This document shows positions 4,667 to 57,068 of a stretch of 57,765 nt of DNA, piece by piece. The first letter of the stretch is position 1. Each line of letters opens with the position of its first letter. The notes under the pieces are model-generated. The model was not told where the DNA came from, made no database searches, and saw only the letters and a program-made list of their open reading frames with translations. The position numbers and the translations under genes are program-made. Source of the DNA: a virus (taxonomy: Duplodnaviria; Caudoviricetes); IMG/VR virus record IMGVR_UViG_3300020045_003609, positions 1 through 57,765 of that record. One strand, given 5' to 3'.

Positions 4667-4667
4667 A

Positions 4668-4850: not shown

Positions 4851-4851
4851 T

Positions 4852-31517: not shown

Positions 31518-32123
31518 ATGATAGGTATATATAAAATTACAAACCCAAATGGTAAAATATATATTGGACAGAGTATTAATATAGAAAAAAGAATTATTAG
31601 GTATAAAAACTTATATGATTGTAAAAATCAGTCAAAATTATACAATTCATTTATAAAATATGGCATAATCAATCATAACTTTGATATAGTTGAAGAATGT
31701 GAAATTTCTGAACTTAATATTAGAGAGAGATATTATCAAGATTATTATAACGTATTAAATAAAGGTTTAAACTTAAAACTTACTAATTTAACAGATAATA
31801 ATGGACCTTTATCTGAAGAAACTAAATTGAAAATTAAAATAAGTTTAACTGGTCACTCTCCTTCAAAAATTGCAAGATTAAATATGAGTAAAGCTCAAAG
31901 AGGAAAAAAAATGTCTGAAGAATCTAAAATAAAAAATTCAATTTCAAAAAAAGGTGGAAATAATCCTAGAGCTAAAAAAGTAATTTGTACTAAAACGAAT
32001 AAGATTTGGAAATGTATTAGAGAATGTGCTTTAGAATTAAATATTAAGCCATTAACTCTTTGTCGTAATTTAAATGGTACATGTCAAAATAAAACAACAA
32101 TTAGATATTATACAGATGAATAA
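31518..32123 (+). CDS. GIY-YIG homing endonuclease with NUMOD3 repeats
   Basis: GIYKITNPNGKIYIGQSINIEKR; SEETKLKI, MSKAQRGKKMSEESK. Confidence 0.92.
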   Translation: MIGIYKITNPNGKIYIGQSINIEKRIIRYKNLYDCKNQSKLYNSFIKYGIINHNFDIVEECEISELNIRERYYQDYYNVLNKGLNLKLTNLTDNNGPLSEETKLKIKISLTGHSPSKIARLNMSKAQRGKKMSEESKIKNSISKKGGNNPRAKKVICTKTNKIWKCIRECALELNIKPLTLCRNLNGTCQNKTTIRYYTDE

Positions 32124-39110: not shown

Positions 39111-40925
39111 ATGAATAGATATAGCAATTTAGAATTAAGTACATATACACCTAGAAGTCTTCAAGAGACTTTAATGGTTCCAGTAATGCGACGACAACAA
39201 CATGATGCTGCTGCAAATCAATTAGATGCTAAAATTTCAGAGTTGGATAAAATTAATCCTTTAAGTCAACACTTTGAAGAAGCTCAGCGTCTTAAAAAAG
39301 AATTAAAATCTACAATTGAATCACAAGCTAATAGATTAGCAACAGAAGGTTTTAATACAAATACTACTAGTAATATTATGCAAACTAACAGAGGTGTAAG
39401 TGATATGTTTTCAGCAACTGGTAGAATTGGTAAAATTAATTCTGCTAAAGCTCAATATGATAAAGAAAAAGAAACTTATTTAGAAGATGCTGTTAAAACA
39501 TCTAAAATAGGTAGAGAACAAGCTTTAAAAAATTGGGAAAAGCATAGTAAAGATAATTATACTGGATATACAAATGATGGAAAAGACATATCTGTTATAA
39601 GTGGATTAGGTGCACCATCTTTTCAAGATTATGAAAAAGATAGAGCAGATTATCATAACTTGTTAGGTAAAACAACAAGTTCAGCTAAAGCTAGTGGATT
39701 TAAAATCGTACCATCTGGTTTAGCAACTGGAGAAATGATGATGGTTGACCAAAAAGGTAATAGAGTTACTTCAGATAACTTAAATCAACTTAATGCTGCA
39801 AAGTTAGGTATGATGAATAAATGGGTATCTGAAAATGGAGAAGGTCGTAGATGGGCTAATGCTGCTGGTTGGGATCCAACTTCTACAGCTAATCGTATAA
39901 ATTTAGACTTCGGTGCAATGAGAGAGCGTTCAGATGTAGATAATACCTATACTGATCATAGTGTAATAAGTGGAACTGGTAATAAAGCAGCTAAAACATC
40001 TGATGTTGAAACTCCTACTGGTACACCTTATGAAACTAAAGAGATTGGAGCTAAAGATTCTGATTATAATGATATTTTAAAAATTGGTTCAAAAAATAAT
40101 GGTTTTGAAAGAGCTGTTACATCTGGATCTACAGCTAGATTTGGTGAAGGTATAGTTACACCTCCTAAACACTTTACACATAATGATATTGCAGACCCAC
40201 TAATGAAAGCTAGATATTTAGCTACATTTGACAAATTATATAAATCTGGAAAAATTCAACATAAAGTTGATAACCCTTATTCTGCAAAATTAGTATTGGC
40301 TGAAATGAAAAAAGATGGACCTATTACATTAAGTTCTAATGTTATAAGAACAGACGCTGAATTAAATAATCTTGGTTTTGCTAACAAATTAGTAGCTAAA
40401 GACGCAAAAGGTAGAGATGCTCAAGTTGTTAGAGAACTTCAACAATCTTTACGTAAGCTAATAGATCCTGAAACGGGTAAACCTACTACCTACAATGAGA
40501 TGGTTAAAAAGGGTTATCAAATGGGTAAAACTCAATATTTTGGATATATGTCACCTCATAATTGGACAGAATCTAATTTTAAAAGTGGAGATATGGCACC
40601 TCATATTATTACTATATATGATAAAGATGGTAATGCATATCCTAGCCAAATGAGTAAAATAGCTGGTGATGAAACTCCTAAAGAAAAAAGAGCTGGTAAA
40701 GTACTTAATGAAACTTATAGAGCTGCTACTGTTTCTCCAAACTCAGAAGTTAAAATTAAATCAGATAGTCCAATATTTAAAGATGTAACTGTATCTTATA
40801 ATACTAGATCTAAAACTGGTCAACAAATTTCTGAACCGTATTGGACAGTTAATGTACCAGGTGAAGGTAAAAGAGATCTTACAGAAAGTGAATATATTAA
40901 ATTTATGAATATAAATATAGAATAA
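39111..40925 (+). CDS. virion cargo/ejection protein
   Basis: 604 aa, Cys-free, within the cargo block. Confidence 0.65.
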   Translation: MNRYSNLELSTYTPRSLQETLMVPVMRRQQHDAAANQLDAKISELDKINPLSQHFEEAQRLKKELKSTIESQANRLATEGFNTNTTSNIMQTNRGVSDMFSATGRIGKINSAKAQYDKEKETYLEDAVKTSKIGREQALKNWEKHSKDNYTGYTNDGKDISVISGLGAPSFQDYEKDRADYHNLLGKTTSSAKASGFKIVPSGLATGEMMMVDQKGNRVTSDNLNQLNAAKLGMMNKWVSENGEGRRWANAAGWDPTSTANRINLDFGAMRERSDVDNTYTDHSVISGTGNKAAKTSDVETPTGTPYETKEIGAKDSDYNDILKIGSKNNGFERAVTSGSTARFGEGIVTPPKHFTHNDIADPLMKARYLATFDKLYKSGKIQHKVDNPYSAKLVLAEMKKDGPITLSSNVIRTDAELNNLGFANKLVAKDAKGRDAQVVRELQQSLRKLIDPETGKPTTYNEMVKKGYQMGKTQYFGYMSPHNWTESNFKSGDMAPHIITIYDKDGNAYPSQMSKIAGDETPKEKRAGKVLNETYRAATVSPNSEVKIKSDSPIFKDVTVSYNTRSKTGQQISEPYWTVNVPGEGKRDLTESEYIKFMNINIE

Positions 40926-40926
40926 A

Positions 40927-43900
40927 ATGGACGAAGAAGAATTAGGATTAAAAGATAAAAAAGCTGGTTCAGATAGTCTATTTAAAAAATATGATGATGT
41001 TAATTCTGGTAAAGTAAAACTTACTGGTAAAGCATCTTTATCTAACCAAATGACTTCTACATATAGAGGTCAAAATACAGGTTTAGGTAAATCTAAATAT
41101 GATAAAAATATTGTATGGGATGCAGATGTCAATCCAGATGATATTCAAGGCTCTATTAATGAACATCGATATAATGAACAGTCTGGAGGAACTCAGTTAT
41201 TAGCTGGAGTTGGTAGAGCTGCTACTAAAGCTTTAGTTGAAGTTGCTAAACTTCCAGGTGTGGTTGCAGGAATAGCTGCATCTCCATTTGTGCCAGATGG
41301 TCAAGGGTATGATATGGCTTTTAATAATCAATGGGTAAAAGCTTTTGATAATATTAATGAAGATATAAAAACTGAGTTTTTACCAGTATATGTTGGTAAA
41401 GCTATTAAAGAAGGTAATCTTTGGGATAATGTAACTTCTACTTCATTTTGGGCAACAGATGGTGCTGATGGATTAGGTTATATGGCTGGAATGATGGCTC
41501 CTGGAATGGCATTTAATTATTTGGGATTAGGTTCAAAATTATTAGGTGGAGCTAGACGAGCTGCTCAAATGGCTGGAATGTCTCAAAAAACTGAAACTGC
41601 TGTAAATGTACTTAAAAGTTTAGGTATGACAGGAAAAGCAATTGATATAGGTCTTGGAGCAACTGCTAATACTGTAATGGAATCAGGAGCTGAAGCTGCT
41701 GGAGTCGGTAACGATATGGATAGTAAAAAAGATCAATATCTTAGAGATTATTCACTTAGATTACAAAATAAACAATTAGCTATTGATAAACGTAGGCAAA
41801 ATGGTGAAATAACCATGGAAGAAGCTAATAGACTTTCTGCTGAAAATATGAAAGTTACTGGTGAAGAATCTTTTGCTGAACAAAGAGCTTTAGCTATGAG
41901 AGATACTTTCAAAGCCAATTTAGCTATACTTATTGTTCCCAATCTATTAATGTCAAAAGCTTTATTTGGTAAACCTGTTGAAAAACTAGTACATCAAGTT
42001 GAAAAAACTGGTATGAAAGCTATAGCTGAACGTGCTGGTAATTCACTTGGAAGATATGGTAAAGCTTTTGCAAGTGAAGGTTTTTTAGAAGAAGGTGGTC
42101 AATCTACAGCTCAAACTATGTTTACTAATAAAGCTATGAAAGGTGAACTTAAAAAAGGTTCAAATTCATATACTGATTTTGTAACAGGTGGTTTATCAGA
42201 TTTTACAATAGGTGATGCTACTAGAGAATATGTAGATATGATATCTTCAAATGAAGGTCATAAAGCTGTATTTTTAGGAGGTATGATTGGTGGACCTATG
42301 ATGTCTTATCAAGGTCGTAAAGAAGACGTAGCTAATCGTAAATCTACCAATTCTATATTAGAAGGTTTAGATGCTGGTATTATGAATTATAATACCATAA
42401 TGGAAAACGATATATATAAAACTGATGATAATGGTGGCTATATATATAAAAAAGATGCAGACGGTAATGAAACTCATGAGCGTGAAATAGATCCAGTTAA
42501 TGCTATCAAAGTTATGAGAGCGTTAAACTATAAAGAAGCTGAATCTAAAGAATTAGAAACCGCTATTAATGAAGGTAACCAACAAGTAGTTGATATTATT
42601 AAACAGCGTGCAATATTTGATTTAATAGCACCTTCTATACAGAATGGTGAAGCTGGTATTGAAGCTTTAAAAGCTAAATTAAATGAATCTACACAATTCC
42701 AAGAAATAATGGAACGTGATTCAAACCCTAAAACAGCTAATGAAAGTAAAGAGTTTGTTAAAAATACTTTAGAAGAAGCTATTCATATTCAAAAGCAAAA
42801 TGAAAAATTTAAAGATTTTGCAAGTGATCTTATCAAATTAGATCATCCTACTGCAACTCCTGCTCAAAAAGAGGCTTACATAGATACTTTAAATACTAGA
42901 TATTTACAAGTGAAACATGAACAGTATAATTCTGAAAAGCAACTAGCTAAGTTACAAGAAAAGCGTCTAAAATTATATGACGAATTAGATATAGACCCAG
43001 ATTATGACATATTTAGTGAATTTCCAATGGCTAAAATGAAAACGGGAACTATTACTGACGCTGATATGGAAGCTAGAGCTAAATCTACTAGAGATGCTCT
43101 TACTAATAATGGATTAGTTAGAGAAGTTGAAGCTGAAATATCTTTCTTAAAAGATGCTATTGCTAAAAATAAATCTGATATTAATGGAGTTTGGTCAGGA
43201 GCTAATGGTATTACTAAATCTTTTAATACATATGTTGAAAATGATGCCATATTAGGTAATATGACTAACCAAGAGAATATTAGAAAGTCACAAGAGATGA
43301 TTGAAAGATTATCAATTGTTAAAACTCAAAATGAATTAGACGCTTTATTAAGAGAATTATCTAAAAATGATACAGAAGAGCTTGTTTTATCTGAAAATCC
43401 GATTATACAAGAAGAAATAGCTAAGAAAGAAGCTGAATTAGCAGCTCTTGCTGAAAAAGAAGCTCAAGAAGCTCTTGAAAAAAAGATTGCTGATGAAATT
43501 GATGAACCAGGCGATGGTGTAGAAACAGACGCTCCAGTAGGTGTACCATCACCTTTAGATCCAGAAAGTGAATCTATTCAATCAGATAAAATTATTGAAG
43601 TTATTGAGAATGAAGATGATATTACAATAAATGAAGATGAAGCTATTCCAGTAGTAGAAGTTGATGTACCTAATGCTGCTCATGGGTCAGCTAGATTAAT
43701 ATCTACAAATAGGGAAACTGGTAAAGCATTGGTTCCAACATTACAATCATTTGTAGATTTTGAAAGAGTACCTCGTGATAAAACTAAAGATAAAGTTTCA
43801 TTTACACTAGGTAATATATATCCTAAAGGTAAAGAGATGTCTATTAAAGAAGCTATGGCGAAAGTTAAAGATGGTAAAACTCTTTCTAAAGAAGAATTAT

Positions 43901-46011
43901 TATTATTAGAAGATTTTCTACCAATATCATCTATAATAAGTGAGGGTGAAAATAAAGGTGTATCATTTTTAGATAGCATGGCTCATCCAAATCCTATAGT
44001 AGTTAAAACTAATACTTTACCGCTTCGTAAAGCTATTGTAAAAGCTCTTATTGATAACAAAGGAAGTTTTGAAGGTATAACTGGTAGGGTACAAAAACAA
44101 GAACCTGGATGGCTTAAAGTTGAAGAACGAGAAGATAATACACCTGTTGCTAAAAATAATATTTTAGAATTAGATGTATTTACAGACATGTCTGAATCTG
44201 ATAAAATTAAATATTTTCAAAAGAATTCAGCATATGTTGATTTCTTTGGAGCATTAAGACATACTGTTAACAACAAGTTAATAGATGCTGAATTTGGTCC
44301 AAAAATGCAAGGTGAAGTATTCTTAAATATACCTAAAGCAAATGGTGAAAAGTTTTGGTTAAAGTTAAATGTTAATCAAATATCAGATGTACAAGCTAAT
44401 GATCTATTTAATTTAATGGTGTTAAAATTTGAACATTTTAATAAAACTAAATCTTCAACTATTACATTAGACGAATTAAATGATATTATTGATACACCAG
44501 GTTTAAAATCTGAATTAAATAATATACTTAGACATAGTAAAAATAATACTGATAAAACAGTTAATACATTAATTGATTTATTAATATATAATGGGAATAG
44601 TAATACTAGAACTGCATTTGGATTATATTTTAAAAATGAAAGTGTAATTGGTAATAATGGTGAAAAGTATAAAGGTAGAAGTGGTGTTAGAGTTGGTTCA
44701 TTATATAATAAATTATCTGGTGGAGATATATTTTTAACTACTATTAATGCTAGTGATATAATCGCAGATCGTGAAGCTTTTAGAGAAAATTTTAAACAAT
44801 TTTTTAAATATAAACGTCATAATGTATTAATTAAACATGGTACATTTAACTTTACTAAACCTGATTATATTAAATATTTGTTAGATCCAACTAATCCTAT
44901 ATTATCAACTAATGCTGTAGTTAATGAACCTACATTTCAAGGTTTTGCTAACATATATTTAAGTCATGATGTTAAAAATGATAGTATACCATTTACACCA
45001 ACTATATCTTTACCAACTGCACCTGTAAAAACTACTATTATACCAGTAAGTGATAAGTTAGTTACTACCGAGAATGAAATCTTAGATGAATATGTTAATA
45101 ATGTTGAAAGTAGACCTGACAATATCCTATTAATAAGTGAACAATCGGGTATTGATAAATATAAAGTAATCAGTGCTGCTAAAAACGCTTCAGAATTATC
45201 AGATAATGTAAATGATACTTTTGGAACAATATTGCAATCCGTAAAAGTTCGAACTTTAAATAATTTAACATCTGGTGAAAAAAGAAGGATTACATTATAT
45301 GATATTGAATTAGCTAAATTAAATAAAGATAAAACTGAAATTAAATTAGTGGAAATTAAACAAGATTCGATATCTGTTAGTAAACAAGATCTTTATGAGG
45401 AAAGAGAACTTTTAAAAGAAAAAATAGCTAATACACCTTTAGTAACTACAAGTATATACTCATCAGATGAAGTAACTAATGGTAATTTAGAAGAAATTAG
45501 AGAAATGCAAGTCAGGTTACGTAAATTAAATTCACTATTAATAGGTTATAAACCTGAAGGTGCAAGTTTAACTGAAGTTATTAAAGTTAAACCAGCTTCT
45601 TTAAAAATCCAGGTTATTAGTAAAGTTGAAGTAATAGATGAAGCTGATCAAACCGAACAGACGTTAAACGCTTTAAAGGCGGAATTAGAAGGTTTAAAAA
45701 AGTTTCATGCAGCAGGTATTAATAAAGCTGATAGAATTAAAGAAGTTGAATCTAAAATTTCTAAAATTAATAATGAAACTCAAGTTACAGCTGAAGTCAA
45801 AGATGTAATAACTCAAGTTAGTGAAGGTAACGTTGATGTAAATTATTTAGAGAATTTAAAAGATAATGATAAACCTAAATTAATGAAAGTTATGAAATAC
45901 TTTATGAAAGAAGGTATATTAACAGCTGCTGATATGAAATCTAGTATGAGTGAAATTGCAAATAAAATTGGATTTAGTACAGTAGCAGATCTTGAAAAAA
46001 ATTGCAAATAA
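40927..46011 (+). CDS. large virion cargo/ejection protein (upstream RNAP partner)
   Basis: 1694 aa; Gly/Ala-rich membrane-like N-terminal segments, SEG.LEEGGQ, FLGGMIGG; single Cys at residue 1693. Confidence 0.72.
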   Translation: MDEEELGLKDKKAGSDSLFKKYDDVNSGKVKLTGKASLSNQMTSTYRGQNTGLGKSKYDKNIVWDADVNPDDIQGSINEHRYNEQSGGTQLLAGVGRAATKALVEVAKLPGVVAGIAASPFVPDGQGYDMAFNNQWVKAFDNINEDIKTEFLPVYVGKAIKEGNLWDNVTSTSFWATDGADGLGYMAGMMAPGMAFNYLGLGSKLLGGARRAAQMAGMSQKTETAVNVLKSLGMTGKAIDIGLGATANTVMESGAEAAGVGNDMDSKKDQYLRDYSLRLQNKQLAIDKRRQNGEITMEEANRLSAENMKVTGEESFAEQRALAMRDTFKANLAILIVPNLLMSKALFGKPVEKLVHQVEKTGMKAIAERAGNSLGRYGKAFASEGFLEEGGQSTAQTMFTNKAMKGELKKGSNSYTDFVTGGLSDFTIGDATREYVDMISSNEGHKAVFLGGMIGGPMMSYQGRKEDVANRKSTNSILEGLDAGIMNYNTIMENDIYKTDDNGGYIYKKDADGNETHEREIDPVNAIKVMRALNYKEAESKELETAINEGNQQVVDIIKQRAIFDLIAPSIQNGEAGIEALKAKLNESTQFQEIMERDSNPKTANESKEFVKNTLEEAIHIQKQNEKFKDFASDLIKLDHPTATPAQKEAYIDTLNTRYLQVKHEQYNSEKQLAKLQEKRLKLYDELDIDPDYDIFSEFPMAKMKTGTITDADMEARAKSTRDALTNNGLVREVEAEISFLKDAIAKNKSDINGVWSGANGITKSFNTYVENDAILGNMTNQENIRKSQEMIERLSIVKTQNELDALLRELSKNDTEELVLSENPIIQEEIAKKEAELAALAEKEAQEALEKKIADEIDEPGDGVETDAPVGVPSPLDPESESIQSDKIIEVIENEDDITINEDEAIPVVEVDVPNAAHGSARLISTNRETGKALVPTLQSFVDFERVPRDKTKDKVSFTLGNIYPKGKEMSIKEAMAKVKDGKTLSKEELLLLEDFLPISSIISEGENKGVSFLDSMAHPNPIVVKTNTLPLRKAIVKALIDNKGSFEGITGRVQKQEPGWLKVEEREDNTPVAKNNILELDVFTDMSESDKIKYFQKNSAYVDFFGALRHTVNNKLIDAEFGPKMQGEVFLNIPKANGEKFWLKLNVNQISDVQANDLFNLMVLKFEHFNKTKSSTITLDELNDIIDTPGLKSELNNILRHSKNNTDKTVNTLIDLLIYNGNSNTRTAFGLYFKNESVIGNNGEKYKGRSGVRVGSLYNKLSGGDIFLTTINASDIIADREAFRENFKQFFKYKRHNVLIKHGTFNFTKPDYIKYLLDPTNPILSTNAVVNEPTFQGFANIYLSHDVKNDSIPFTPTISLPTAPVKTTIIPVSDKLVTTENEILDEYVNNVESRPDNILLISEQSGIDKYKVISAAKNASELSDNVNDTFGTILQSVKVRTLNNLTSGEKRRITLYDIELAKLNKDKTEIKLVEIKQDSISVSKQDLYEERELLKEKIANTPLVTTSIYSSDEVTNGNLEEIREMQVRLRKLNSLLIGYKPEGASLTEVIKVKPASLKIQVISKVEVIDEADQTEQTLNALKAELEGLKKFHAAGINKADRIKEVESKISKINNETQVTAEVKDVITQVSEGNVDVNYLENLKDNDKPKLMKVMKYFMKEGILTAADMKSSMSEIANKIGFSTVADLEKNCK

Positions 46012-46014
46012 AAT

Positions 46015-46045
46015 TAGGATATGTGGAAATAATTCACTATCTTTG
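46015..46045 (+). promoter_or_regulatory. Promoter of the virion RNAP gene (TAGGATAT / TATCTTTG)
   Basis: Same bipartite motif, 23-nt offset. Confidence 0.82.
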
Positions 46046-46060
46046 TAAAAAAAATAACAT

Positions 46061-49000
46061 ATGAGTTGTGAAATTAAAATTTTAAATGGTGAAACTGAGT
46101 CTCAACTGGCTAAGTATTTAACCACTAACATAAATGACGGTGATATGAATGTCACTGCCGAACAAATTAAGTACTTTAGAAGTCCAGCATTTATAAAAGA
46201 ATTTGGAGACTATACTGCGGCTACTAAAGCTCAATTTGAAGGTGAATATGCTGAGATGGTATCAAGAGTTGATGAGAATGGAGAACCATTACTACAATAT
46301 AATGATACGGCTCAAAAATATTATTTTTTAGACAGTCGCAACCAGCAAGTTTATTTCCCTTTGCAAAAGAAAGGTTTAAGAGGTATTTTAACTTATCAAG
46401 AAATTGATAAGTTAGTATCTCGTTTTGCTTTGCAATATTTTAAAGCTTCTGGTATTAACTTTAATAATATTAACTTTAAGGAAAGTAAGGCTTTACCAAA
46501 CCTTAAAGAAGCTATTACAAAGCTTATAACTGATAAAACTAATGAGCTTGAGTCAAGTGATGACTTTGAAGTTCAAATGTCAGCAAATACAGTTGATGTA
46601 TTAAACGATCACGTTGATGAACTTGAATCTAGAGTTAGAGATTACTTTACTAGGATGTCTATTAAGCTTGTAGAAGATGATAATACTACTAGTGCTGATG
46701 AAATAAGTGAATCTACAAGAGATGGTTTAGGATTACAGAGTTCAGCAGAACGTGATTCTAAAGATAGTGTTAGTACAAACGTTAAACTTAAGTTATCTTT
46801 ATTAGAAGACATTAAATATATTTTAGATGGTAATGGTAATCCTAAGTTAAATGGACTTGGAAAACCAATCATAGATCCTAAGTCTATAGATCCAATATGG
46901 AACGAACCCTCTTATGCTGAATTTAGTGATGTATATAGTACATTACTTTCTATATTTAGCGATAGTACGGATTTACATGGTGAAGATATTTGGCAAATAT
47001 ATAAAGATAGAATTGCCGCTACTAAAGATAAAAAACCATTTTTAGTAGAGTTAGAAAGACAAATTAATGATGAAAGTTTTACTAAAGAAAATATTAATGA
47101 GTTAGTTCAAGCTTTCCGATTAAACAAGAATAACCATATGCAATCAGATGTAAGTGTAACTTATGTTACTACTGAACAGACTGATGAAAACGGTAATCTA
47201 ATTAGAGATCCTGAGACAGGTAAGATTGTAAAAGATGAAGTTATTGCTCATAAAAACTATAGTGTATCAGATGCTGGTTCTAAAACTCAATTAGTTAAAG
47301 AATCTTGGTTTAATAACTTTAAATCTAATTTTTTAACTGATACTAACAAACCTAATAAAGAGGCGTCAGCTAAAGCCGATAAGTTTGTACAAGCTTTTAC
47401 TCAAATTAGAACTTTAATTAATAAAGCTCATGAGAAAGAAAGTTATGAACCTTCTGATTTAGACGATCATATTACAAGGTTATTAACTGGTTTAGGAGCT
47501 CTTGGTATTAAAGTTTCTGCAGAAGGTATATCTAATTATCTTGATGATAATGGTAAAAATTTAAGTGATTCATATAGAGTTGAAAAACTTAAAGAGTTAG
47601 TAGATGCAACTATTTCAGCTTCTACTAATATTTCTACGGCAATGAAATCCAAATATGCTTATACTCCAAATAAATTCTTTGGATCATCTTTAGCGTTCTT
47701 AGATCTTGCTAAAAGTGAAGCATTTTTTATGTCAGATGGATCTGATGCAAACGTTAGACAAGGTGGTAAGAATTTGTATATATATTCATACCCATCATAT
47801 TTATCAACTAAATTTGCTCAGTGGAAAAAAAGTTCAAAACAAGAGCTTGAGAGAATGAAAAATGGTTCAGAAGTTAAATATATTGGTACAACTTTAATAG
47901 ATAAGTTACTTAGTAGTTCACCTTACTTAAAAGGATCTTTTACTTTAAGATATTTATCTGGAGAAATAGACATGAGTGGAGAAGTAATTGATTACTTTGG
48001 AGAAGATGTATATGAAGAATCTTTACTTAAACTTATTGAATCTAACAAACGTTTAGATAACTTTAATCTAGGTATGTTTAACCAAATGAGTAAAGGTAGC
48101 GCTTTTAAATCTACTACAGATTTGACATACAAAGATTACCTTGCAGATGATGTTCAAAAAACTTTAAAAAATGGTTTTACAAGAACTATTACACCTGCTG
48201 ATAAAACTACTGAATATGGTATTGAAACTGGTATCCAAATTGAAGGTGTTGATTTTGTAGATAACAAAGCTGTGATTAGTAGTGCTGTTAAAAAAATGCA
48301 ATTTAATTATTTTGCATCAGAGTATAACAGAATGATTGATGCTGGTAATGATATTGCTAGAAGTATTCAATCAGGTATGAATGGTACAGATTTAGATTCT
48401 CATTATCATTATAATTATGCTGCTGCAACAAAAGATGGTATTAGTTCTGAAGAAAAAACTAAACGACTATTAAATAGAAGTGGTAATGCTTTTAAATCTC
48501 AATATTATGATAGACTTAGTCCTGGTACTAAAGATCTAACTGAACAAGAGCAACTAATACATGATAAGCTTTATAAAAACGGCTTACCATCTTTAGAAAT
48601 ATTAAAATATGGTGCAGATGCTGAATTAACAGATATGATAGAGCAGTATATAAGCTCTGAAATGTCAAAAAATATTAGAACCACATTTGATGCATTAGTA
48701 GATTCAGATATTATTAAAGTAACTGAAGAAGGGGCTTATGAAATTCAAGGTATTGACACAAATATTGCAGAAAGTTATAAAGCTAATTACGGTCATTATA
48801 GTAAAGCTTCTGCAGCAATGGCATTAGCTACTGATTATTATGTTAATGCTGTTCATAATCATATTGAATATTCTAAAATGTTTACAGGTGATGTAGCTTA
48901 TTATAAGAATCCTGTCGATTTTAAGAAAAGGGTTCCAGCTACATATACTGACGGTTTACAACTTAGAGTTGAACCTGGTCAAGAGTATTTTAAAATTGCA

Positions 49001-52000
49001 ACTATAGAAGGTGTATATAGAGCTTCACCATTCTTAGATAAACTTAAATCTATTTTAAATGGTGTAGATATATTAGGTGACGTTGCTGATGAATATAGTA
49101 ATATTAACAGCTCCGATGCTCAAGCTTGGATTACTCCTAAACGTTGGAAGTTTTTAATTGAAGGTTTAGGTAAATGGTCTACAGGTAAAGATAGTTATGA
49201 AAGTGTGTATAAGAAGATGATGTCAAATACACCTGTTGAATATAGTGAAAAAGAATTAAAACTTGCTGCCCAACCTCTCAAAGGTGTATACTTTGGTAGA
49301 GATAATAGAAGTAAGCCAGTTTTTCTTAAATATTCACAAGCTGTATTAAGTAAACAAATGGTTGCAGGTTCTGATTTAGAGATCTTATTTGATAAGATGG
49401 ATAAGAATGGTATAGATGAAACTATTACTTTTGATGGAATTAAAGTTGGATCAATAACTCCTACTAAAATTCATGATAAAGATGGTAGAATATTACCTGA
49501 CTTTGAATTAAATGAAATGACTCTTAATAATAAAGAATGGAAACTTCAACAAGACTTACCTACTAAAACATATAAAGATACAGATGTTGGATCTCAAATT
49601 CAAAAGAATATATTTGCTGGACTTATTCATAATAAAGATAATGAAGAATTTTTACTAGATGGTAATTATGTTTCAGGACAATATGTTATGGATGAGATAG
49701 TTAAAACTGTAACTGGTATGACTGAAGCGGGTCTTGCTAAAGTTAAAAAAGAGTTTAAAATTGATGATAATTATAATATGACCGATGTTAAAGGTTTTTA
49801 TAAAACTTTAATTGGTGAACTCGAATCAAGAGGTGGTTCTAGTAATATTATAGATGCTTTAAAAGCTGAAATAGCTTTACCAGGAATACCACAAGCTGGA
49901 AGTAAATTAATCAATATGTTTACTTCTATAATGAATGATAGACTTATTAAAATTAAAACTAATGGTGGTTCATTCATTCAAATGTCAAACTTTGGTATGA
50001 ATAAGACTATGGGTAACTCCATAGGTGTAATGTGGGCACCATATGCTGATAGTACAGTAAATGAGCCATATCCATATAAAGACCCAGAAACTGGTAAAAC
50101 TAAGATTAAACTTGGTGGAGTATTAGTATCTCCAACTATGATATCTAAATACTTACCAAATTGGAGGTCTTTAACTGAAGAAGAATTATTTGGTACGTAT
50201 GAAGAAGTTAAAGATGAAAATGGCGTTGTAATCGATCACAAATTAATAACACCTGGAGCATTAGATCCTAAAATACTAGATAATATAATAGGTTATAGGA
50301 TTCCTAATCAAGGGTTAGCTTCAAATGATGCTTTAAGAATTGTAGGTATATTACCTGAATCAAGTGGAGATACAGTTGTAGCTTACACAGGTATTACTAC
50401 TAAGACTGGTTCGGATTTTGATATTGATAAGATGTATATGATGTTTCCATCTATTAAAGCTGTATATACTGATCCAATTGATATATATAATAGATCTATT
50501 GAATTTATTGAAAAGAATGATATTTCAAGAAAAGAAATGATTTCTCAACTAGAAGATGAAGGTCTTTATCAAGATTTTAATAAACTTAGTATAAAACAAC
50601 TTATAGATTTATATATTACAGATGTTTTAATAAATGGAGAAGTTGGTGATTACGGTGATCATTTTAGATCATTAAATGATGTTCATCTTAAAAAAGTTCA
50701 AAGTATTGAATATGTAGATTCAGTTGGTAATACTTCTGCAGCAATGTCTAATAGACTAATTGAATTATATAAATCAGTTTTAACAAATCCTGTTGTATAT
50801 CCAAAAGTAATGACACCTATTGATATGCCTTTTATTAGTGATGAAATTAATTCAATTAGTCCTGATATAAAAAGTAATAATGTACTTATGACATTTGACC
50901 CAATTGAAGATATCAAATTAAGATATTCATTTTTAGGAGGGAAAGCTGGAGTAGGTATGGAAGCTAACGCTTTAGTTGATATTAGTAGACCTGGTATATT
51001 ATCACTTAATGATAGATATATAGGATGGGGTCACAAAGATGACTATGGTAATACAGTATTTGATAGAGAGTATTCAGAATCGTTAAGTGAAAAAGACTTA
51101 AACTATTATGTTGAAGTAATGCGTAAAGAAAAAGGTAAAGACTTTGATGAAGTTAAATTTAGAAAGTCAATTACTAAAGTTGCAATTGGGGATTCTCTTA
51201 CAGCTATTTTGAATGCGTTTGTGGATATTGCAAAAGATCCATATATTACTAAGGGTAACTGGACAACAAGTACTACTAATGTAGGTAATTTATTATTACG
51301 TTCAGGAATGCATCCAATACAAGTTGTTAACTTTATGGCTCAACCTATTTTAATACAATATACAGCTTTTGAGAATAACTTAAAAAGTTTAGGTGATGAA
51401 GATGGGGCAGATGTAATGTATTTATTTAAAAAAGAACAAGTTATGAATGCGTTACAGGATATTAATCCTGAATATAAACGTATATACAGAGAATCACCAA
51501 TGATATCAAGTTTAATTTCAAGACGAGATAGTTTAGGTGAAGATCTTCAATTTAAGCAAATATCTGAAGAAGATTATAATAATGGTATAAAAACTATAGA
51601 TAAACAACTTAATAGAATTAAAAAGAAAGCGGGTAATATTTTGAAACGTGAAGGAATGTCTGTTGAAGAAATTGCAGCAATAGCTGATGAAGCTATTAAT
51701 ATCATTGCTATAAATCATAAAGAAATATATTATCCTGAAAATAGATCAGTTAATGAAAGTTTAGAATTTTATAGAACTCAAATTACAGACAAATCTAGTA
51801 GAGATAATGGATTTCAAACCGCAGTTCTTTTTAAATTTCAAGAGTTACAAAAAACTAGTCAAATATTAGGTGCCGCAATTAGAGTTGCTAAATCTGATAC
51901 TAGCGGATTGGGTAAGAACATAAATTCATTATATGCACTTTCAAATGCATATGACTCTATTATTAATAAGCAAAATGATGAGGGTGAACTTGTTGGGTTT

Positions 52001-53167
52001 GAAAGTAAATTTGATAATACCCCATTAGCTGCTTATTTTGGTTCACTTATGGAAGTTAAAAAGATTGTAGATGCAAATCCAAACTTATTTCCTCAAGGTA
52101 GTGCTAAAGCTCAGAATATGTTTAATGTTATATCTAATGACTTAAAAGGTACTGATGCAATGAACTCAGAGTTAATGGATAGTTTAGAAATAGATTATAA
52201 TAGTTATTTGATATCTAATCTATTTAATATGCAACCCGCAGAAGTTATTGATATAATTACTAAATTTCCATTAAGATATTCTAATTTTAGAAAAGAAAAT
52301 GAAGGTAAATATTTCTTATTAGAAGATTTAATATCTAAATCACCTTTGGCTATTACAAATGCGGACGGTTCTGCAGGAATGGAAATAAGAACCATAGGTT
52401 TAAACAATAGAAAGAAAGATAAGTTTTATGAAAAAGCTTTTACTGATTCATGGGAAGATTTAGCTGAAGATAATCCTAAGATGGCTGAAGATTTAGTTAA
52501 GTATGCGTTTGTAACATCTGGTTTTAAGATGTCAGCCACTCAATTCTTTACTTACATACCTTATACTTATTTTGTTAAAAAGAATATTAATAATCATGTT
52601 AATAACTTTGCTAAACAATCACAAGATGATTTTATAGATTTGTATTATAGAAATAATTTTGAAAAAATTGTTAAACCTCTTAAAAAAGGTACTCAATTTG
52701 ATACAATAGCTAGTGTTGATTCTGAAGATGGTACTACATTTGTACAAGCTTTTCGTATACCAAATGTTAGTAATTCTAAATTTTATGTATCATATGGTGG
52801 AACAACTTATAAACTTCAAGGTTATACATCTTTATCAAATAATGGTATTGCTGAAACTCCAATATATGTAGCTGTTAATAAAGCTACCCTTACTGTAAAT
52901 AATAAAGAACTTGTTAATTACAGTCCATATAAAGTTGCTGGATTACATGATAAGATTATATCTCAAGATAGTTTAAGAAAAGCTAATGATTTAGTAAATT
53001 ATAATAGACGTGGAGAATTAATTGAAACTAGAGAAGATAATGCTTTAGCAGATATATTATCAGTAGTTACTCCAAAAGTTTCTGCAGTTAATAAATCTGA
53101 AATTATTGAAACTGTAAATCAACCAGATGGTATGCCTGCAATAAAAATTACTGATCCTAAATGTTAA
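46061..53167 (+). CDS. virion-packaged single-chain two-barrel RNA polymerase (phi14:2 gp66-like)
   Basis: Catalytic GSDFDIDK (nt 50414-50431), GYRIPNQ, DAQ, QPLKG, LKYS, AFVDIAKDP. Confidence 0.93.
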   Translation: MSCEIKILNGETESQLAKYLTTNINDGDMNVTAEQIKYFRSPAFIKEFGDYTAATKAQFEGEYAEMVSRVDENGEPLLQYNDTAQKYYFLDSRNQQVYFPLQKKGLRGILTYQEIDKLVSRFALQYFKASGINFNNINFKESKALPNLKEAITKLITDKTNELESSDDFEVQMSANTVDVLNDHVDELESRVRDYFTRMSIKLVEDDNTTSADEISESTRDGLGLQSSAERDSKDSVSTNVKLKLSLLEDIKYILDGNGNPKLNGLGKPIIDPKSIDPIWNEPSYAEFSDVYSTLLSIFSDSTDLHGEDIWQIYKDRIAATKDKKPFLVELERQINDESFTKENINELVQAFRLNKNNHMQSDVSVTYVTTEQTDENGNLIRDPETGKIVKDEVIAHKNYSVSDAGSKTQLVKESWFNNFKSNFLTDTNKPNKEASAKADKFVQAFTQIRTLINKAHEKESYEPSDLDDHITRLLTGLGALGIKVSAEGISNYLDDNGKNLSDSYRVEKLKELVDATISASTNISTAMKSKYAYTPNKFFGSSLAFLDLAKSEAFFMSDGSDANVRQGGKNLYIYSYPSYLSTKFAQWKKSSKQELERMKNGSEVKYIGTTLIDKLLSSSPYLKGSFTLRYLSGEIDMSGEVIDYFGEDVYEESLLKLIESNKRLDNFNLGMFNQMSKGSAFKSTTDLTYKDYLADDVQKTLKNGFTRTITPADKTTEYGIETGIQIEGVDFVDNKAVISSAVKKMQFNYFASEYNRMIDAGNDIARSIQSGMNGTDLDSHYHYNYAAATKDGISSEEKTKRLLNRSGNAFKSQYYDRLSPGTKDLTEQEQLIHDKLYKNGLPSLEILKYGADAELTDMIEQYISSEMSKNIRTTFDALVDSDIIKVTEEGAYEIQGIDTNIAESYKANYGHYSKASAAMALATDYYVNAVHNHIEYSKMFTGDVAYYKNPVDFKKRVPATYTDGLQLRVEPGQEYFKIATIEGVYRASPFLDKLKSILNGVDILGDVADEYSNINSSDAQAWITPKRWKFLIEGLGKWSTGKDSYESVYKKMMSNTPVEYSEKELKLAAQPLKGVYFGRDNRSKPVFLKYSQAVLSKQMVAGSDLEILFDKMDKNGIDETITFDGIKVGSITPTKIHDKDGRILPDFELNEMTLNNKEWKLQQDLPTKTYKDTDVGSQIQKNIFAGLIHNKDNEEFLLDGNYVSGQYVMDEIVKTVTGMTEAGLAKVKKEFKIDDNYNMTDVKGFYKTLIGELESRGGSSNIIDALKAEIALPGIPQAGSKLINMFTSIMNDRLIKIKTNGGSFIQMSNFGMNKTMGNSIGVMWAPYADSTVNEPYPYKDPETGKTKIKLGGVLVSPTMISKYLPNWRSLTEEELFGTYEEVKDENGVVIDHKLITPGALDPKILDNIIGYRIPNQGLASNDALRIVGILPESSGDTVVAYTGITTKTGSDFDIDKMYMMFPSIKAVYTDPIDIYNRSIEFIEKNDISRKEMISQLEDEGLYQDFNKLSIKQLIDLYITDVLINGEVGDYGDHFRSLNDVHLKKVQSIEYVDSVGNTSAAMSNRLIELYKSVLTNPVVYPKVMTPIDMPFISDEINSISPDIKSNNVLMTFDPIEDIKLRYSFLGGKAGVGMEANALVDISRPGILSLNDRYIGWGHKDDYGNTVFDREYSESLSEKDLNYYVEVMRKEKGKDFDEVKFRKSITKVAIGDSLTAILNAFVDIAKDPYITKGNWTTSTTNVGNLLLRSGMHPIQVVNFMAQPILIQYTAFENNLKSLGDEDGADVMYLFKKEQVMNALQDINPEYKRIYRESPMISSLISRRDSLGEDLQFKQISEEDYNNGIKTIDKQLNRIKKKAGNILKREGMSVEEIAAIADEAINIIAINHKEIYYPENRSVNESLEFYRTQITDKSSRDNGFQTAVLFKFQELQKTSQILGAAIRVAKSDTSGLGKNINSLYALSNAYDSIINKQNDEGELVGFESKFDNTPLAAYFGSLMEVKKIVDANPNLFPQGSAKAQNMFNVISNDLKGTDAMNSELMDSLEIDYNSYLISNLFNMQPAEVIDIITKFPLRYSNFRKENEGKYFLLEDLISKSPLAITNADGSAGMEIRTIGLNNRKKDKFYEKAFTDSWEDLAEDNPKMAEDLVKYAFVTSGFKMSATQFFTYIPYTYFVKKNINNHVNNFAKQSQDDFIDLYYRNNFEKIVKPLKKGTQFDTIASVDSEDGTTFVQAFRIPNVSNSKFYVSYGGTTYKLQGYTSLSNNGIAETPIYVAVNKATLTVNNKELVNYSPYKVAGLHDKIISQDSLRKANDLVNYNRRGELIETREDNALADILSVVTPKVSAVNKSEIIETVNQPDGMPAIKITDPKC

Positions 53168-53183
53168 TAAAATAATATAATAT

Positions 53184-56100
53184 ATGGCGTGTCCAATTAA
53201 AATAAAAAATGCTTTAACTGAAAAAGTTGAAGAATTAACTATAGAAGGACTTGATTTAACTTTAGAAGCTGCTAATGAAGTGGCTTCTACGGTTAATGAT
53301 ATGTTTAAAGAAAATGTAGTTAGCTTTACTAAAGATGAAAATTCTGAAACTATAATTAGAAATATTGAAATTCCACAATCATTAGTTGATATATTTTTTG
53401 AACATCAAACTAAGATGGAAGAAGCTGCTAAATTAGCTAATGCTTCCTCTCCATCAATGGAAGAAATGTTTGAAAAATGGAATAATCTTCAAGATGAAAA
53501 TGCTGAACCTCTAGCATCTGAGCCAAAGGTTAATAGACGTGTTGAAACTGATTCGGAATTTACTACAATTGATGATTCATTAACTAACTTTATAAAGAAA
53601 GCTCTTGATAAATTAGAAGCTGTTAGAAAAAGAACTCAGGCGGCTTTAAATCATGAACATACTGTTGATAGAGAGTTATATTTAGCTAATACAAAAGCTT
53701 TAATTGATGAAATAGCATCTCATGAATATGGTAATAGATGGAAAGCTATTATTGGATATACATCTTCTTTTGCAAAAACAATTAATCATGTTAACAAATT
53801 ACTTAATGAGTTATCAAATACTTATAATTTACAAGAAGATGATGTTACAGAACTTGTAGAAAAGTATTCAGATTATTTAAAAGCTTATGATATGCTAGGT
53901 GATATTCAACAAATTGCAAGTAAAACTAGTTTAAATAAACTTGATTTATCAGAAGAAGAGCTTGAAGATTTTAAAAGTATACAGACTTTCTTAGATTCAT
54001 TTACAACAGGTCATCAAACTATTACTGATAAATTTTTAGAAATAAAACGTCAACAAGCTATTAGAATATTTTCAGATCCTAAATATAATACAGAAGTTGA
54101 AACTAAACATCGTAAAAGATTAGAACTTGAATACAAATCTTTAGAAGATAAAGATGGTATGTCTAAGAATGAATTCATATCTAAAATGCTTAATACACGT
54201 GACGCTGATGATTTTAAAGCTGATTTAAAGGCTTCTGCTGAAAAAAGAGCATTTGATCCATCCATGGATATTACATCTGCTTCAGGGTTACTTTCTGATA
54301 ATATTAATACTAATAATAGAATAATGCAAATTATTAATAATGTATTATCTGAAGCTAGAGGTAAAGTTGTAGAATTATTTATGAATAATGATAAAGTTAT
54401 GTTTAACTTACATAAAGCTCTTGTAGCTGAAAAAGGTAATCTTAAACCATCTGAGTTATATAAAAACTTTTTTGAATCTGATTCAAATGGAAAAAGATGG
54501 TTGAAAGGTAGATTCAGTGTTAAGTTTAAAGAAGAACTTGAAGCTATTAAAAAAGAAGTTAGAAATGATCATGACACCACATTTAAAGTATTAGAAGTTC
54601 AAGAAAATAACTTATCTTCTATTAAAAAAGGTAACAAAACTATATCTTTACGTTCTACAGGTTCTCACAATATTGCTGAAAATGATACCACAGTGGTTAC
54701 TGTAAATAATATCAAAACTGGTCTTAAAGTTAGAGTAAATAGTGTAACTACATATCAAAATTTTAATGAATTATCTGACCAAAAGAAAGATGATTTTGCA
54801 AGAGCTGTTGGTAATTATGAAGACTTTGCAGATTTCTTAAAATCTAATGATTATGCTGATATTAATACAGAGAAAGCTCAAAATTACCCAGAAATTTATA
54901 ATTTTATTAATGGGTCGGGTTCAATGGATATTATATCTTATGAAAAAGTTGGAAATGATTTAACTGAATATAAAAAATTTAGTAAAGCTAATGGTAAATT
55001 TAACAAGTGGATGAAAGAAAACACTGTTAGAGTTGTACGTAATGGTAAAAAAGTTAGAGAACCTGCTTCTAAGTTTGCTAATCAACCTTTAAGTAAAGCT
55101 GAACAAAAATTATTAAATGCTTTTATAAAAATAAACAGAGATAATGATATAAACTTTAAAGGTCAAGGATCTTTAGTTACCAAAAGAATGGGTGCAGAAT
55201 ATTACGAACTTCCATCTATTTCTAAAAGTGATTTAGAAAGAAGAATTGAGGGTGATATAAAAGGGTTATTAAAAGATAAGTGGACTGATTTTACTGAAAT
55301 TAAAAGTGATGATGTAGGTATACAAGGTAGACAAGAGGCTGTAGATTCTAAAGGTCAAGTAATTAGAGATATAAAAGTTCATTATAGAGGTGCTATTGAA
55401 GCTGATCAACAGTCTTTAGATTTAACTACTATGTATAGAAAAGAATACTTTAATGGTATAAACTATGCTAGCAAACGTGAAATGAAACCTAAACTAACTG
55501 TTATTGCAGACGTAGTTAAAGGTTCACAATTTTACAAAAGAGGTTCATTTGGAGAAAGACTTAAAAATAAATTTGCAGAAAGATCTCCTGAAGTTACCGT
55601 AAGTGGTGAATCTAGTGAAATACATAAAAGAATAGTAGGATTAATAGATCGTACATTATATGATACATTTAGTTCTTACGGTGGTACATTATTAGGTAAA
55701 GATATTAATAAAATTACATCTACTATTAATGGTTATGCTGCAGGAATAGCAATGTCATTCAACTTAGCATCGGGTGTAGCAAATGCAGCTAATGGGTTTA
55801 CTCAATTATTTATTGAATCTGTAGGTAATGATAAAATCAAAAAAGGTTTGGTGTCAAAAGCTGAAGCTAAATACGGTAGAGCATTACTTGATGGAAGTTT
55901 ATTAAAAGACTTAACTAATCCTACTAAAAGTTCTTATTTTAATCAGTTACTTGAAAAGTTTGATGTTATGGGTGGATTAGATCCTACTGATCAAGAATCT
56001 ATTAGAAATACATTTATTCGTAAATTTGGTTCTACTAAAATGATGAATGTATTAAATCAAGGTGGTGAGCATATGATGCATTCTATTCTTACTGAAGCTA

Positions 56101-57068
56101 TATTAGATGGTATTAAAGTGATGAACTCACAAAGTCAATATATAGATAAAGATGGAAATATTACTACTCAAGATAAAGCTGCATCTTTAATAGATATGAT
56201 GTATATGAATCAAGATGGTGTATTAACAATAAGTGATAAAGTTATATATTCAGACTTTAATTTATCAACTCCGTTTCATGAAGGTGGTAAAACTCATATA
56301 GACCTATTAATAAAAAAGAAGACATTTGATATATTTGGTGTATATGATGTTAAATTTAAGAATGAAATGTCTAAACATTGGTTAGGTAAAATGGCAATGA
56401 TGTTTAAGAATTTCTTTATATCTGGTGCTCAGTATAGATATACTGGTTTTGGCAAAGTCAATAAAGACTCTTCAGACCTAACAGATGATGATATGTTTTA
56501 TAATTCAGCTGAAAAAGAATATATTGAAGGTACATATACTACATTAGGTAGATTTTTAATAAATACAGTTATACCAAATTTAAAAAGTTTGAAATTAATG
56601 TATATGAAAGAAAATTATGAAAATTTATCTGATTATGAAAAATCTAATCTTAAAAAAGCTACTATGGAAATAGCTTTAACTATGGTAATATTACCATCAG
56701 TTGGATATTTATTAGGAGCGTTAGCAGCCGCAGGTGATGACGATGATGATGCATTATGGTTTGCAATTTATGTTAATAGAAGACTTATTCAAGAACTTTC
56801 TCAATTTAGAAATCCTATAGAAGCTGGTAAACTAATTAATAATCCAGTTGCTGGATCTAGATTTGTTAATAATTTATTAGATTTTACATATGATATTGCT
56901 ACACCTATTAATATCGTTCCACAGAAAAATGAAAGTTTTATAGGTTATCTTGATGAAAATTCAAAAGGTGAAAATAAAATGGTAAAACATGGTAAAAAGT
57001 TAATCCCTATATGGGCACAACTTGGTAAAGATTACCAACAACTTTACGGATTGCAATTTGGCAAATAA
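53184..57068 (+). CDS. large virion cargo/ejection protein (downstream RNAP partner) with inserted ASCH-like domain
   Basis: 1294 aa helical; C-terminal hydrophobic segment + DDDDD, G.MAMMFKNF...G; single Cys at residue 3. Confidence 0.72.
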   Translation: MACPIKIKNALTEKVEELTIEGLDLTLEAANEVASTVNDMFKENVVSFTKDENSETIIRNIEIPQSLVDIFFEHQTKMEEAAKLANASSPSMEEMFEKWNNLQDENAEPLASEPKVNRRVETDSEFTTIDDSLTNFIKKALDKLEAVRKRTQAALNHEHTVDRELYLANTKALIDEIASHEYGNRWKAIIGYTSSFAKTINHVNKLLNELSNTYNLQEDDVTELVEKYSDYLKAYDMLGDIQQIASKTSLNKLDLSEEELEDFKSIQTFLDSFTTGHQTITDKFLEIKRQQAIRIFSDPKYNTEVETKHRKRLELEYKSLEDKDGMSKNEFISKMLNTRDADDFKADLKASAEKRAFDPSMDITSASGLLSDNINTNNRIMQIINNVLSEARGKVVELFMNNDKVMFNLHKALVAEKGNLKPSELYKNFFESDSNGKRWLKGRFSVKFKEELEAIKKEVRNDHDTTFKVLEVQENNLSSIKKGNKTISLRSTGSHNIAENDTTVVTVNNIKTGLKVRVNSVTTYQNFNELSDQKKDDFARAVGNYEDFADFLKSNDYADINTEKAQNYPEIYNFINGSGSMDIISYEKVGNDLTEYKKFSKANGKFNKWMKENTVRVVRNGKKVREPASKFANQPLSKAEQKLLNAFIKINRDNDINFKGQGSLVTKRMGAEYYELPSISKSDLERRIEGDIKGLLKDKWTDFTEIKSDDVGIQGRQEAVDSKGQVIRDIKVHYRGAIEADQQSLDLTTMYRKEYFNGINYASKREMKPKLTVIADVVKGSQFYKRGSFGERLKNKFAERSPEVTVSGESSEIHKRIVGLIDRTLYDTFSSYGGTLLGKDINKITSTINGYAAGIAMSFNLASGVANAANGFTQLFIESVGNDKIKKGLVSKAEAKYGRALLDGSLLKDLTNPTKSSYFNQLLEKFDVMGGLDPTDQESIRNTFIRKFGSTKMMNVLNQGGEHMMHSILTEAILDGIKVMNSQSQYIDKDGNITTQDKAASLIDMMYMNQDGVLTISDKVIYSDFNLSTPFHEGGKTHIDLLIKKKTFDIFGVYDVKFKNEMSKHWLGKMAMMFKNFFISGAQYRYTGFGKVNKDSSDLTDDDMFYNSAEKEYIEGTYTTLGRFLINTVIPNLKSLKLMYMKENYENLSDYEKSNLKKATMEIALTMVILPSVGYLLGALAAAGDDDDDALWFAIYVNRRLIQELSQFRNPIEAGKLINNPVAGSRFVNNLLDFTYDIATPINIVPQKNESFIGYLDENSKGENKMVKHGKKLIPIWAQLGKDYQQLYGLQFGK

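Follow-up and report, generated by a model that had tools for sequence, protein, structure and literature searches.

Facing terminal cysteines suggest a head-to-tail disulfide link between the giant ejection proteins of crassviruses, virion RNA polymerase included

In the human gut, few viruses are as abundant as the crassviruses. The DNA considered here, positions 1 to 57,765 of IMG/VR virus record IMGVR_UViG_3300020045_003609 (the window, in all 57,765 nucleotides), is a stretch of a crAss-like phage genome with a G+C content of 29%. It carries a block of five cargo genes, the last three of which encode giant ejection proteins that are called U, R and D in what follows, R being the virion RNA polymerase (RNAP). 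These five proteins contain four cysteines, and each of the four is found at an end of U, R or D that faces the neighbouring protein of the series. The question raised by this locus is whether such cysteines join the three proteins in the particle. Comparison with related loci and analogy with a known phage structure lead us to answer that they probably do, the virion then holding a disulfide-linked chain, U-S-S-R-S-S-D, of approximately 5,350 residues joined head to tail. The pattern bears on the way in which a cargo of more than 0.6 MDa, with an RNA polymerase in it, is packaged and ejected by crassviruses.

Terminal cysteines in the window and in related loci

A scripted recount of the five cargo open reading frames (ORFs) of the window gives four cysteines in 6,897 amino acids (aa), none of them internal. 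The sole cysteine of U is residue 1693 of 1694 (TGC, 46003-46005), in the tail ...LEKNCK that precedes the stop codon. R has Cys3 (TGT, 46067-46069; head MSCEIKI) and Cys2368, the final residue of its 2368 (TGT, 53162-53164; tail ...DPKC, followed by the stop codon), and the sole cysteine of D is residue 3 (TGT, 53190-53192; head MACPIKI). A head-to-tail signature, that is, one cysteine at the C-terminal end of the upstream protein and one at the N-terminal end of the downstream protein, is therefore present at both junctions, U1693-R3 and R2368-D3. An earlier note on this DNA had given the same four cysteines at the same positions, with these heads and tails and no internal cysteine, and the recount agrees with it in every detail. 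The 25 other ORFs of the window of at least 150 aa contain 90 cysteines in 9,918 aa (0.91%), which leads to an expectation of about 63 in 6,897 aa; the probability of observing four or fewer is 3.5e-22. For all four to fall by chance among the 30 positions located at most three residues from a protein end in these five, the probability is 2.9e-10.

By its sequence, R is the crAss-like virion RNA polymerase of the phi14:2 gp66 type. It matches PDB entry 6vr4_A ("DNA-dependent RNA polymerase", the phi14:2 enzyme) with a phmmer E-value of 4.7e-193, and its catalytic DFDID, at residue 1452 (nucleotides 50414-50428), conforms to the DFDxD motif that is invariant in an alignment of the RNAP catalytic core (alignment A1). 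As judged from R, Cellulophaga phage phi14:2 is the closest cultured relative (tblastn, 29% identity over 90% of the query); its virion RNAP is gp077, named gp66 in a 2020 preprint (PDB 6VR4). U is the counterpart of phi14:2 gp078 and crAss001 gp47, and D that of phi14:2 gp076 and crAss001 gp49. The orthologues of U, R and D, gp47/gp50/gp49 in PhiCrAss001 and gp078/gp077/gp076 in phi14:2, have the same terminal cysteines. Packaging of the RNAP in the virion and its ejection into the host are reported for the phi14:2 and PhiCrAss001 orthologues. Apart from a weak ASCH match in D, no PHROGs or Pfam family was found for U, R and D. Of the 66 D-type ORFs of other loci, 42 contain, usually near residue 120-260, the zincin-type motif HExxH that has been reported in the partner protein of phi14:2; D of the window is devoid of it.

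Conservation was assessed in a first set of loci (set 1) made up of IMG/VR relatives of R, namely 10 whole-protein loci and the best 80 of 534 stretches confirmed with a catalytic-core alignment. Clustering of 87 loci at a core identity of at least 90% gave 69 clusters, each represented by one locus; L002, L015, L033, L008 and L010 were added and L062, a broken near-copy of L060/L061, was removed, giving 73 non-redundant loci. L012, L013 (crAss001) and L094-L099 were handled outside the set 1 tallies. End windows of 10 residues were used for these tallies, and protein starts follow a first-ATG rule, which is a simplification. Seventeen loci (L060-L062, L067-L069, L071, L074, L076, L081, L085-L087, L089-L092) were recoded with TAG as glutamine; fragmented under table 11, they yield ORFs of 4,000-5,000 aa once recoded. 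TAG recoding is known in crAss-like phages (PMC7886860).

Among the 73 loci, cysteines are present on both sides of 34 of the 36 U/R boundaries and of all 70 R/D boundaries (here and below, a slash marks a boundary between separate proteins). The pairs are kept despite sequence identities of 23-36%. On the N-terminal side, the cysteine is mostly residue 3 (range 2-7); on the C-terminal side, it mostly lies 1-4 residues from the end (range 1-9). Only one of 57 outer N-ends and one of 64 outer C-ends carry a cysteine. Both cases correspond to additional gene splits, U being cut in two in L078 and D in L047, and in both the neighbour has the facing cysteine. The interiors hold 90 cysteines in 385,164 aa (0.023%). 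Cysteine is the sole invariant column in the alignments of 16 U C-terminal tails (alignment A5) and of 11 R C-terminal tails (alignment A2). Met1 and Cys3 are the only invariant columns of 11 D N-terminal heads (alignment A3), and Cys3 is invariant in the 16 rows of R N-terminal heads (alignment A4). These tails and heads are otherwise poorly conserved, with a mean column identity of 21-25%.

Two side observations concern the same boundaries. The R tails and the D heads seem to form matching sequence classes. Besides, R of L009 (5435-14638) and L010 (5459-15112) is about 3,100-3,200 aa long, with a catalytic core some 600 residues further from the N-terminal end than in R of the window, and U of L009 is short (1311 aa); the U/R boundary may be shifted in these two loci, yet it has the cysteine pair.

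Genomes of the p-crAssphage type are missing from set 1. They were recovered by a scan with a p-crAssphage-like RNAP core, of which the best 80 of 196 stretches were retained; four of these 80 loci, having no intact motif ORF, were omitted, and the remainder form 27 clusters (set 2). The architecture is U/RD in 27 of 27 clusters, R and D being a single protein. U ends with a cysteine located 1-2 residues from its end in all 27, and RD has a cysteine at residues 3-6 in 24, so that the pair is found at 24 of the 27 boundaries. In the three others (L122, L124, L152), an in-frame methionine is located two residues ahead of the first cysteine, and allowing it as the start raises the count to 27 of 27. 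In these three RD proteins, as in crAss002 gp33 (L094 13100-25837), the annotated or first-ATG start places the first cysteine at residue 17-35; all four starts were probably called too far upstream, the in-frame methionine restoring an M-x-C head. No cysteine is found at the 26 complete C-ends of RD or at the seven complete N-ends of U. Internal cysteines are about 10 times commoner in set 2 (L103-L182, mostly gut-derived) than in set 1 (L001-L093), a difference that may be linked to the exposure of the particles to oxygen.

Named phages behave alike. In phi14:2, the terminal cysteines are Cys1797 of the 1797 residues of gp078, Cys3 and Cys2179 of the 2180 residues of gp077, and Cys3 of gp076. 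In crAss001, gp47 has Cys2339 (of 2341 residues), gp50 has Cys5, Cys1334 and Cys2404 (of 2412), and gp49 has Cys5. The rule is also followed by DAC15, crAss002, CrAssphage LMMB (Carjivirus), cr3_1, cr1_1 and FpV4. Hence, an expectation of the earlier note is borne out, since the orthologues, those of phi14:2 and crAss001 among them, keep the terminal cysteines as facing pairs. The outer ends of the chain are without cysteine except at extra splits. As a separate observation, some smaller proteins of the cargo block have a single near-end cysteine, at -2 in the 861-aa protein of CrAssphage LMMB (L096 1858-4443), at -8 in crAss002 gp30 (L094 2405-4078, sole cysteine) and at residue 5 in FpV4 gp30 (L095 2051-3847, sole cysteine); no facing partner was seen for these three.

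Cysteine pairs at gene fusions and splits

In 26 clusters, U and R are fused in one ORF of about 3,500-5,600 aa, the U and R matches being inside the same ORF. None of these 26 fusions has an N-terminal cysteine. Twelve have a C-terminal cysteine alone or no cysteine at all; the other 14 have 1-8 internal cysteines, with no pair at the inferred junction, as judged by eye from the coordinates. Fusions of R and D are found in L078 and in all 27 clusters of set 2, and the R/D junction pair is gone from them. In L082, the three proteins form a single one of 5,642 aa (R core at 2664-3407, D profile at 4416-5628), which contains no cysteine. The earlier note had proposed to check whether the terminal cysteines vanish where the genes are fused. 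They do so in the 26 U+R clusters, in the 27 clusters and L078 for R+D, and in L082.

The distribution of these states was mapped on trees of the RNAP core. With 101 rows, the U/R state needs seven changes, at least five of which are forced by well-supported branches, and the R/D state needs two; with 74 rows, the U/R state needs five. The trees come from a quick search, and 11 loci where U is outside the locus are uncounted for the U/R state. Such repeated changes indicate that the cysteine pair was gained or lost along with splits and fusions several times, not once. Thus, the comparison shows that the facing cysteines are under strong selection as pairs and, as far as sequences tell, can be exchanged with a peptide bond. 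Fusions lose the pair and splits gain a new one, as would be expected if a disulfide were interchangeable with a peptide bond in evolution. The absence of the pair from the fused junction further suggests that the two bonds do the same job at the junctions between modules. Among the possible pairings of the four cysteines, head-to-tail pairing is the only one that fits the U/R/D, UR/D, U/RD and URD architectures as well as the extra splits.

Fused "polyprotein" forms of the three proteins were already noted for some crAss-like phages (10.1101/2020.03.07.982082). The same three modules, in the same order, compose these polyproteins and the U+R, R+D and U+R+D fusions described here. The preprint supposes that the polyproteins are cleaved, whereas the present fusions lack the cysteine pair exactly at the fused junction. 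Since fused forms without cysteine exist, separation after entry is not universally required. Their existence argues that the role of the link is to be sought in packaging or ejection and not in a subsequent separation of the proteins, and less weight is to be given to an activation of the RNAP by reduction.

Nature of the link and competing readings

A bond of the proposed type has been seen in the pre-ejectosome of cyanopodophage A4. In its cryo-electron microscopy (cryo-EM) structure, the C-terminal helix of gp27 is disulfide-bonded, Cys1715 being linked to Cys5 of gp26, and this bond stabilizes the helix, which sits in a cleft of a five-fold, folded assembly inside the capsid (PMC12002296). 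In the A-4L record, these residues are the sole cysteines of gp27 (1717 aa) and gp26 (1114 aa), encoded by adjacent genes. The resemblance with the crassvirus proteins is close, with two large ejection proteins, adjacent genes and a single cysteine at each facing end; the difference is that A4 has one bond, two proteins and no RNA polymerase. The authors treat the bond as a local stabilizing contact, and the accessible text discusses neither a conserved rule nor a relation to gene fusion (PMC12002296). With A4, a bond of this type already has a precedent; the novelty lies in a rule that holds across the order, in the proposed three-protein chain with the polymerase in it, and in the exchange of a disulfide for a peptide bond or the reverse.

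This precedent also qualifies the belief, expressed in the earlier note, that such a linkage was undescribed. For crassviruses no earlier description was found, but one head-to-tail disulfide between ejection proteins is published, that of cyanophage A4 (PMC12002296). No mention of cysteines or disulfides in crassvirus cargo proteins or RNAP was found in the accessible texts, supplements excluded, which include the Crassvirales review PMC10136315, PMC7886860 and the N4 paper PMC13434306. The word "cysteine" has no occurrence in PMC10172136 or in the 2020 preprint on the phi14:2 RNAP (10.1101/2020.03.07.982082); "disulfide" is used for tail and portal-vertex proteins only in the former and has no occurrence in the latter.

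In the cryo-EM structure of PhiCrAss001, proteins of the tail and of the portal vertex have disulfides between subunits (PMC10172136). Such bonds, therefore, do form in crassvirus particles. Mass spectrometry detected gp45, gp46, gp47, gp49 and gp50 in the virions, and the cargo is believed to be partly unfolded on its way through the tail (PMC10172136). Taken together, the PhiCrAss001 disulfides and the A4 structure lead us to infer that the facing cysteines form a disulfide. The head-to-tail linkage proposed in the earlier note is thus supported by conservation, by loss of the pair upon fusion, by outer ends free of cysteine and by the A4 bond.

Other podophages help to separate two features of the pattern. 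N4 gp50, gp51 and gp52 contain no cysteine in 3,500, 644 and 150 aa, respectively, which agrees with the mention of a cysteine-free N4 virion RNAP in the earlier note. In T7, gp15 and gp16 have no cysteine and gp14 (L101 1729-2319) has one at residue 2, which no C-terminal cysteine of gp13 faces. The N4 and T7 ejection proteins are therefore cysteine-free or nearly so, but they have no facing terminal pairs and no covalent chain is expected. This indicates that cysteine avoidance is common to ejected proteins and that the terminal pairs are special.

The following mechanism may be proposed. Non-covalent docking of the tail of one protein on the head of the next would bring two thiols side by side, the C-terminal cysteine of U next to Cys3 of R for the first bond and that of R next to Cys3 of D for the second. 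The bonds would close after assembly, once the particle has left the reducing cytoplasm, and would hold U, R and D in fixed order and number through packaging and ejection. With cysteines within about seven residues of the ends, each joint would be almost as thin as a continuous polypeptide and fit for passage through the tail. Finally, the reducing cytoplasm of the host would open the bonds.

Several points weigh against this chain. For crassviruses, the bond is deduced from comparison, and the cargo proteins cannot be seen in the PhiCrAss001 maps, which are those of the only virion structure (PMC10172136). The A4 precedent appears to be an analogy, that is, a system alike in its working and not a sequence relative of U, R or D: a jackhmmer search started from A-4L gp26-29 matched none of the ORFs of 400 aa or more in the loci, and the U and D profiles found nothing in A-4L gp26-29 at E-values up to 10. 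The cytoplasm where virions are assembled is reducing, and the surroundings of gut phages are anaerobic, which puts the closure of the bond in question. Set 2 interiors contain 424 cysteines in 176,291 aa (0.24%, vs. 0.023% in set 1); this tolerance weakens the case for a threading that requires cysteine avoidance. The cysteine-free fused forms mean that the proteins need not be separable to function. In addition, both sets were built from the best-scoring loci of each scan, leaving out the most distant lineages.

Exceptions at individual boundaries also count on that side. At the two missing U/R boundaries of set 1 (L025 and L053), R has its N-terminal cysteine and the sole cysteine of U is 32 and 18 residues from the end, respectively. 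The RNAP of L006 (7592-19586), a locus located on one contig with L044, is divided into three ORFs (1943, 1161 and 871 aa). Cysteines are found at residue 3 and at the C-terminal end of the 871-aa ORF, but the ORF that precedes it has none at its C-terminal end. The break in the RNAP of L041 follows a poly-Lys run and has no cysteine on either side; it could be a frameshift or a true boundary without pair. With Pfam, the unusual ORFs of these two loci (L006 and L041) gave only sub-threshold matches, the 1161-aa ORF being without family.

A different kind of break is seen in L015 (11584-12527), L002 (14002-14933) and L033 (11635-12582), where about 930-946 nucleotides interrupt the RNAP gene inside DFDID and no cysteine pair is present. 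In L015, a 214-aa ORF within the insert is surrounded by matches of the group I intron type (RF00028, 33.5 and 25.2 bits, below the gathering score of 50). This break is a group I intron-like insert and not a protein boundary.

The alternative that survives best, although we regard it as unlikely, keeps the disulfides and assigns them another function. They would staple a folded core complex in the capsid, as in the A4 pre-ejectosome, with no ejection thread and no regulatory reduction. The folded five-fold setting of the A4 bond speaks for it, as do the prediction that PhiCrAss001 cargo proteins are folded and helical (PMC10172136) and the tolerance of internal cysteines in gut lineages. However, the cysteines lie 1-7 residues from the ends in nearly all cases, a position that fits a thin in-line joint and is needless for a staple, and the fusions put a plain peptide link in the identical N-to-C order.

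A shared metal ion could also pair the facing cysteines, in a small intermolecular site without disulfide. Comparative data show pairing, not chemistry, and a metal bridge would need no oxidation, which suits anaerobic hosts. Nevertheless, we consider this improbable. Each partner brings one cysteine, with no other invariant His, Cys, Asp or Glu column, and the single solved case of the signature, that of A4, is a disulfide. In the zinc sites known to bridge two chains, of which the Rad50 hook is an example, each chain provides two cysteines.

It is less probable still that each terminal cysteine acts alone, through homodimers, attachment to another part of the virion or modification of the end, U, R and D then being unlinked. 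Nothing specific speaks for it, beyond the partnerless near-end cysteines of the LMMB 861-aa protein, crAss002 gp30 and FpV4 gp30. Against it, 104 of the 106 set 1 boundaries carry both cysteines, free ends are without cysteine (1/57 and 1/64, both from extra splits), fusion removes the two cysteines together and repeatedly on the tree, and the A4 bond is heterotypic. Lastly, chance or a neutral leftover of common ancestry is hardly credible: kinship between the relatives makes the raw counts overstate independence, but cysteine is the sole invariant residue in tails 21-25% identical, new splits (L047, L078) acquired it whereas fusions on more than one branch lost it, and the window-level probability is 2.9e-10.

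Other readings of the pattern were rejected. A signal carried by DNA or mRNA at the gene junction is ruled out by crAss001 and DAC15, where the pairs are kept with the U gene on the opposite strand, and by L020, where the pair is retained across three Cys-rich ORFs inserted between the R and D genes. At other loci, the cysteines are still present across gaps of 350-1,200 nucleotides. A general property of protein ends is excluded by the free chain ends, which have no cysteine. As for a split intein or trans-splicing, cysteines 1-3 residues from the ends leave no room for an intein half, and no Pfam Hint or intein match was found in U, R and D. An inter-chain zinc hook or clasp would have at least two ligands per chain, for example CxxC, and each end has one cysteine; no invariant metal-ligand column other than cysteine exists in alignments A2, A3 and A5. 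Prediction of a complex between the first 250 residues of R and the last 150 of U (alignments A4 and A5, 16 rows each) gave scores of 0.20, 0.32 and 0.28; their median, 0.28, is below the mark of 0.32 and weighs neither for nor against the link.

A broader generalization is possible, though rather doubtful. Head-to-tail disulfides might be a general "ejection train" of short-tailed phages that arose more than once and turned separate giant proteins into one linear polymer, with joints thin enough for the tail channel, exchangeable with peptide bonds and cut by the host cytoplasm; in crassviruses, the cut would free the RNAP from U and D and act as a redox trigger of early transcription.

The disulfide-linked chain is a concrete and cheap hypothesis, derived from a strict rule (104/106 boundaries in set 1 and 24-27/27 in set 2) that is independent of gene order. 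Culturable phages follow this rule, namely phi14:2, PhiCrAss001, DAC15 and FpV4, and mass-spectrometry runs of reduced and unreduced PhiCrAss001 virions exist (PMC10172136). The pattern indicates that, where two modules meet, a disulfide and a peptide bond are equivalent in evolution, which is unusual, and it connects crassviruses to the sole solved example, cyanophage A4. In practice, it may help to call start codons and protein boundaries in cargo genes that are hard to annotate, intron breaks carrying no pair.

The cargo block of the window and its surroundings

The genes of the cargo block and the muzzle gene, which is the last tail gene and lies directly ahead of the block, are listed in Table 1. 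The structural genes of the window include a P22-like portal gene. The Crassvirales module is confirmed by a major capsid protein (PF23898, Crass_capsid, E 3.9e-169) followed by the muzzle protein and cargo protein 1 in the expected order. Cargo protein 1 is located upstream of the U-R-D chain and has no terminal cysteine. For the cargo protein 2-like product, no family match was obtained in PHROGs or Pfam.

Table 1. Muzzle and cargo-block genes of the window (positions are those of the whole stretch).
Feature	Coordinates	Strand	Size, cysteines and identification
Muzzle protein	32074..36150	+	1358 aa, 5 Cys; Pfam crAss_MUZ PF25731, E 6.7e-208
Cargo protein 1	36295..39108	+	937 aa, 0 Cys; Pfam crAss_CARG1 PF25725, E 1.3e-21
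Cargo protein 2-like	39111..40925	+	604 aa, 0 Cys; blastp relatives at the equivalent position in related loci
Protein U, first giant ejection protein of the chain	40927..46011	+	1694 aa; blastp/jackhmmer relatives
Protein R, virion RNA polymerase	46061..53167	+	2368 aa; 6vr4_A match and DFDID
Protein D, last giant ejection protein	53184..57068	+	1294 aa; blastp relatives

Two ORFs of the window are rich in cysteine and have no Pfam family, one at 18121-18696 within the structural block (191 aa, 11 Cys, several as CxxC) and the other at 2869-3339 (156 aa, 7 Cys). Three GIY-YIG nuclease ORFs, at 846-1538 (E 2.3e-08), 5277-5792 (E 6.8e-07) and 31518-32123 (E 4.1e-05, with a weak NUMOD3 match too), are dispersed among the structural genes and are probably homing endonucleases.

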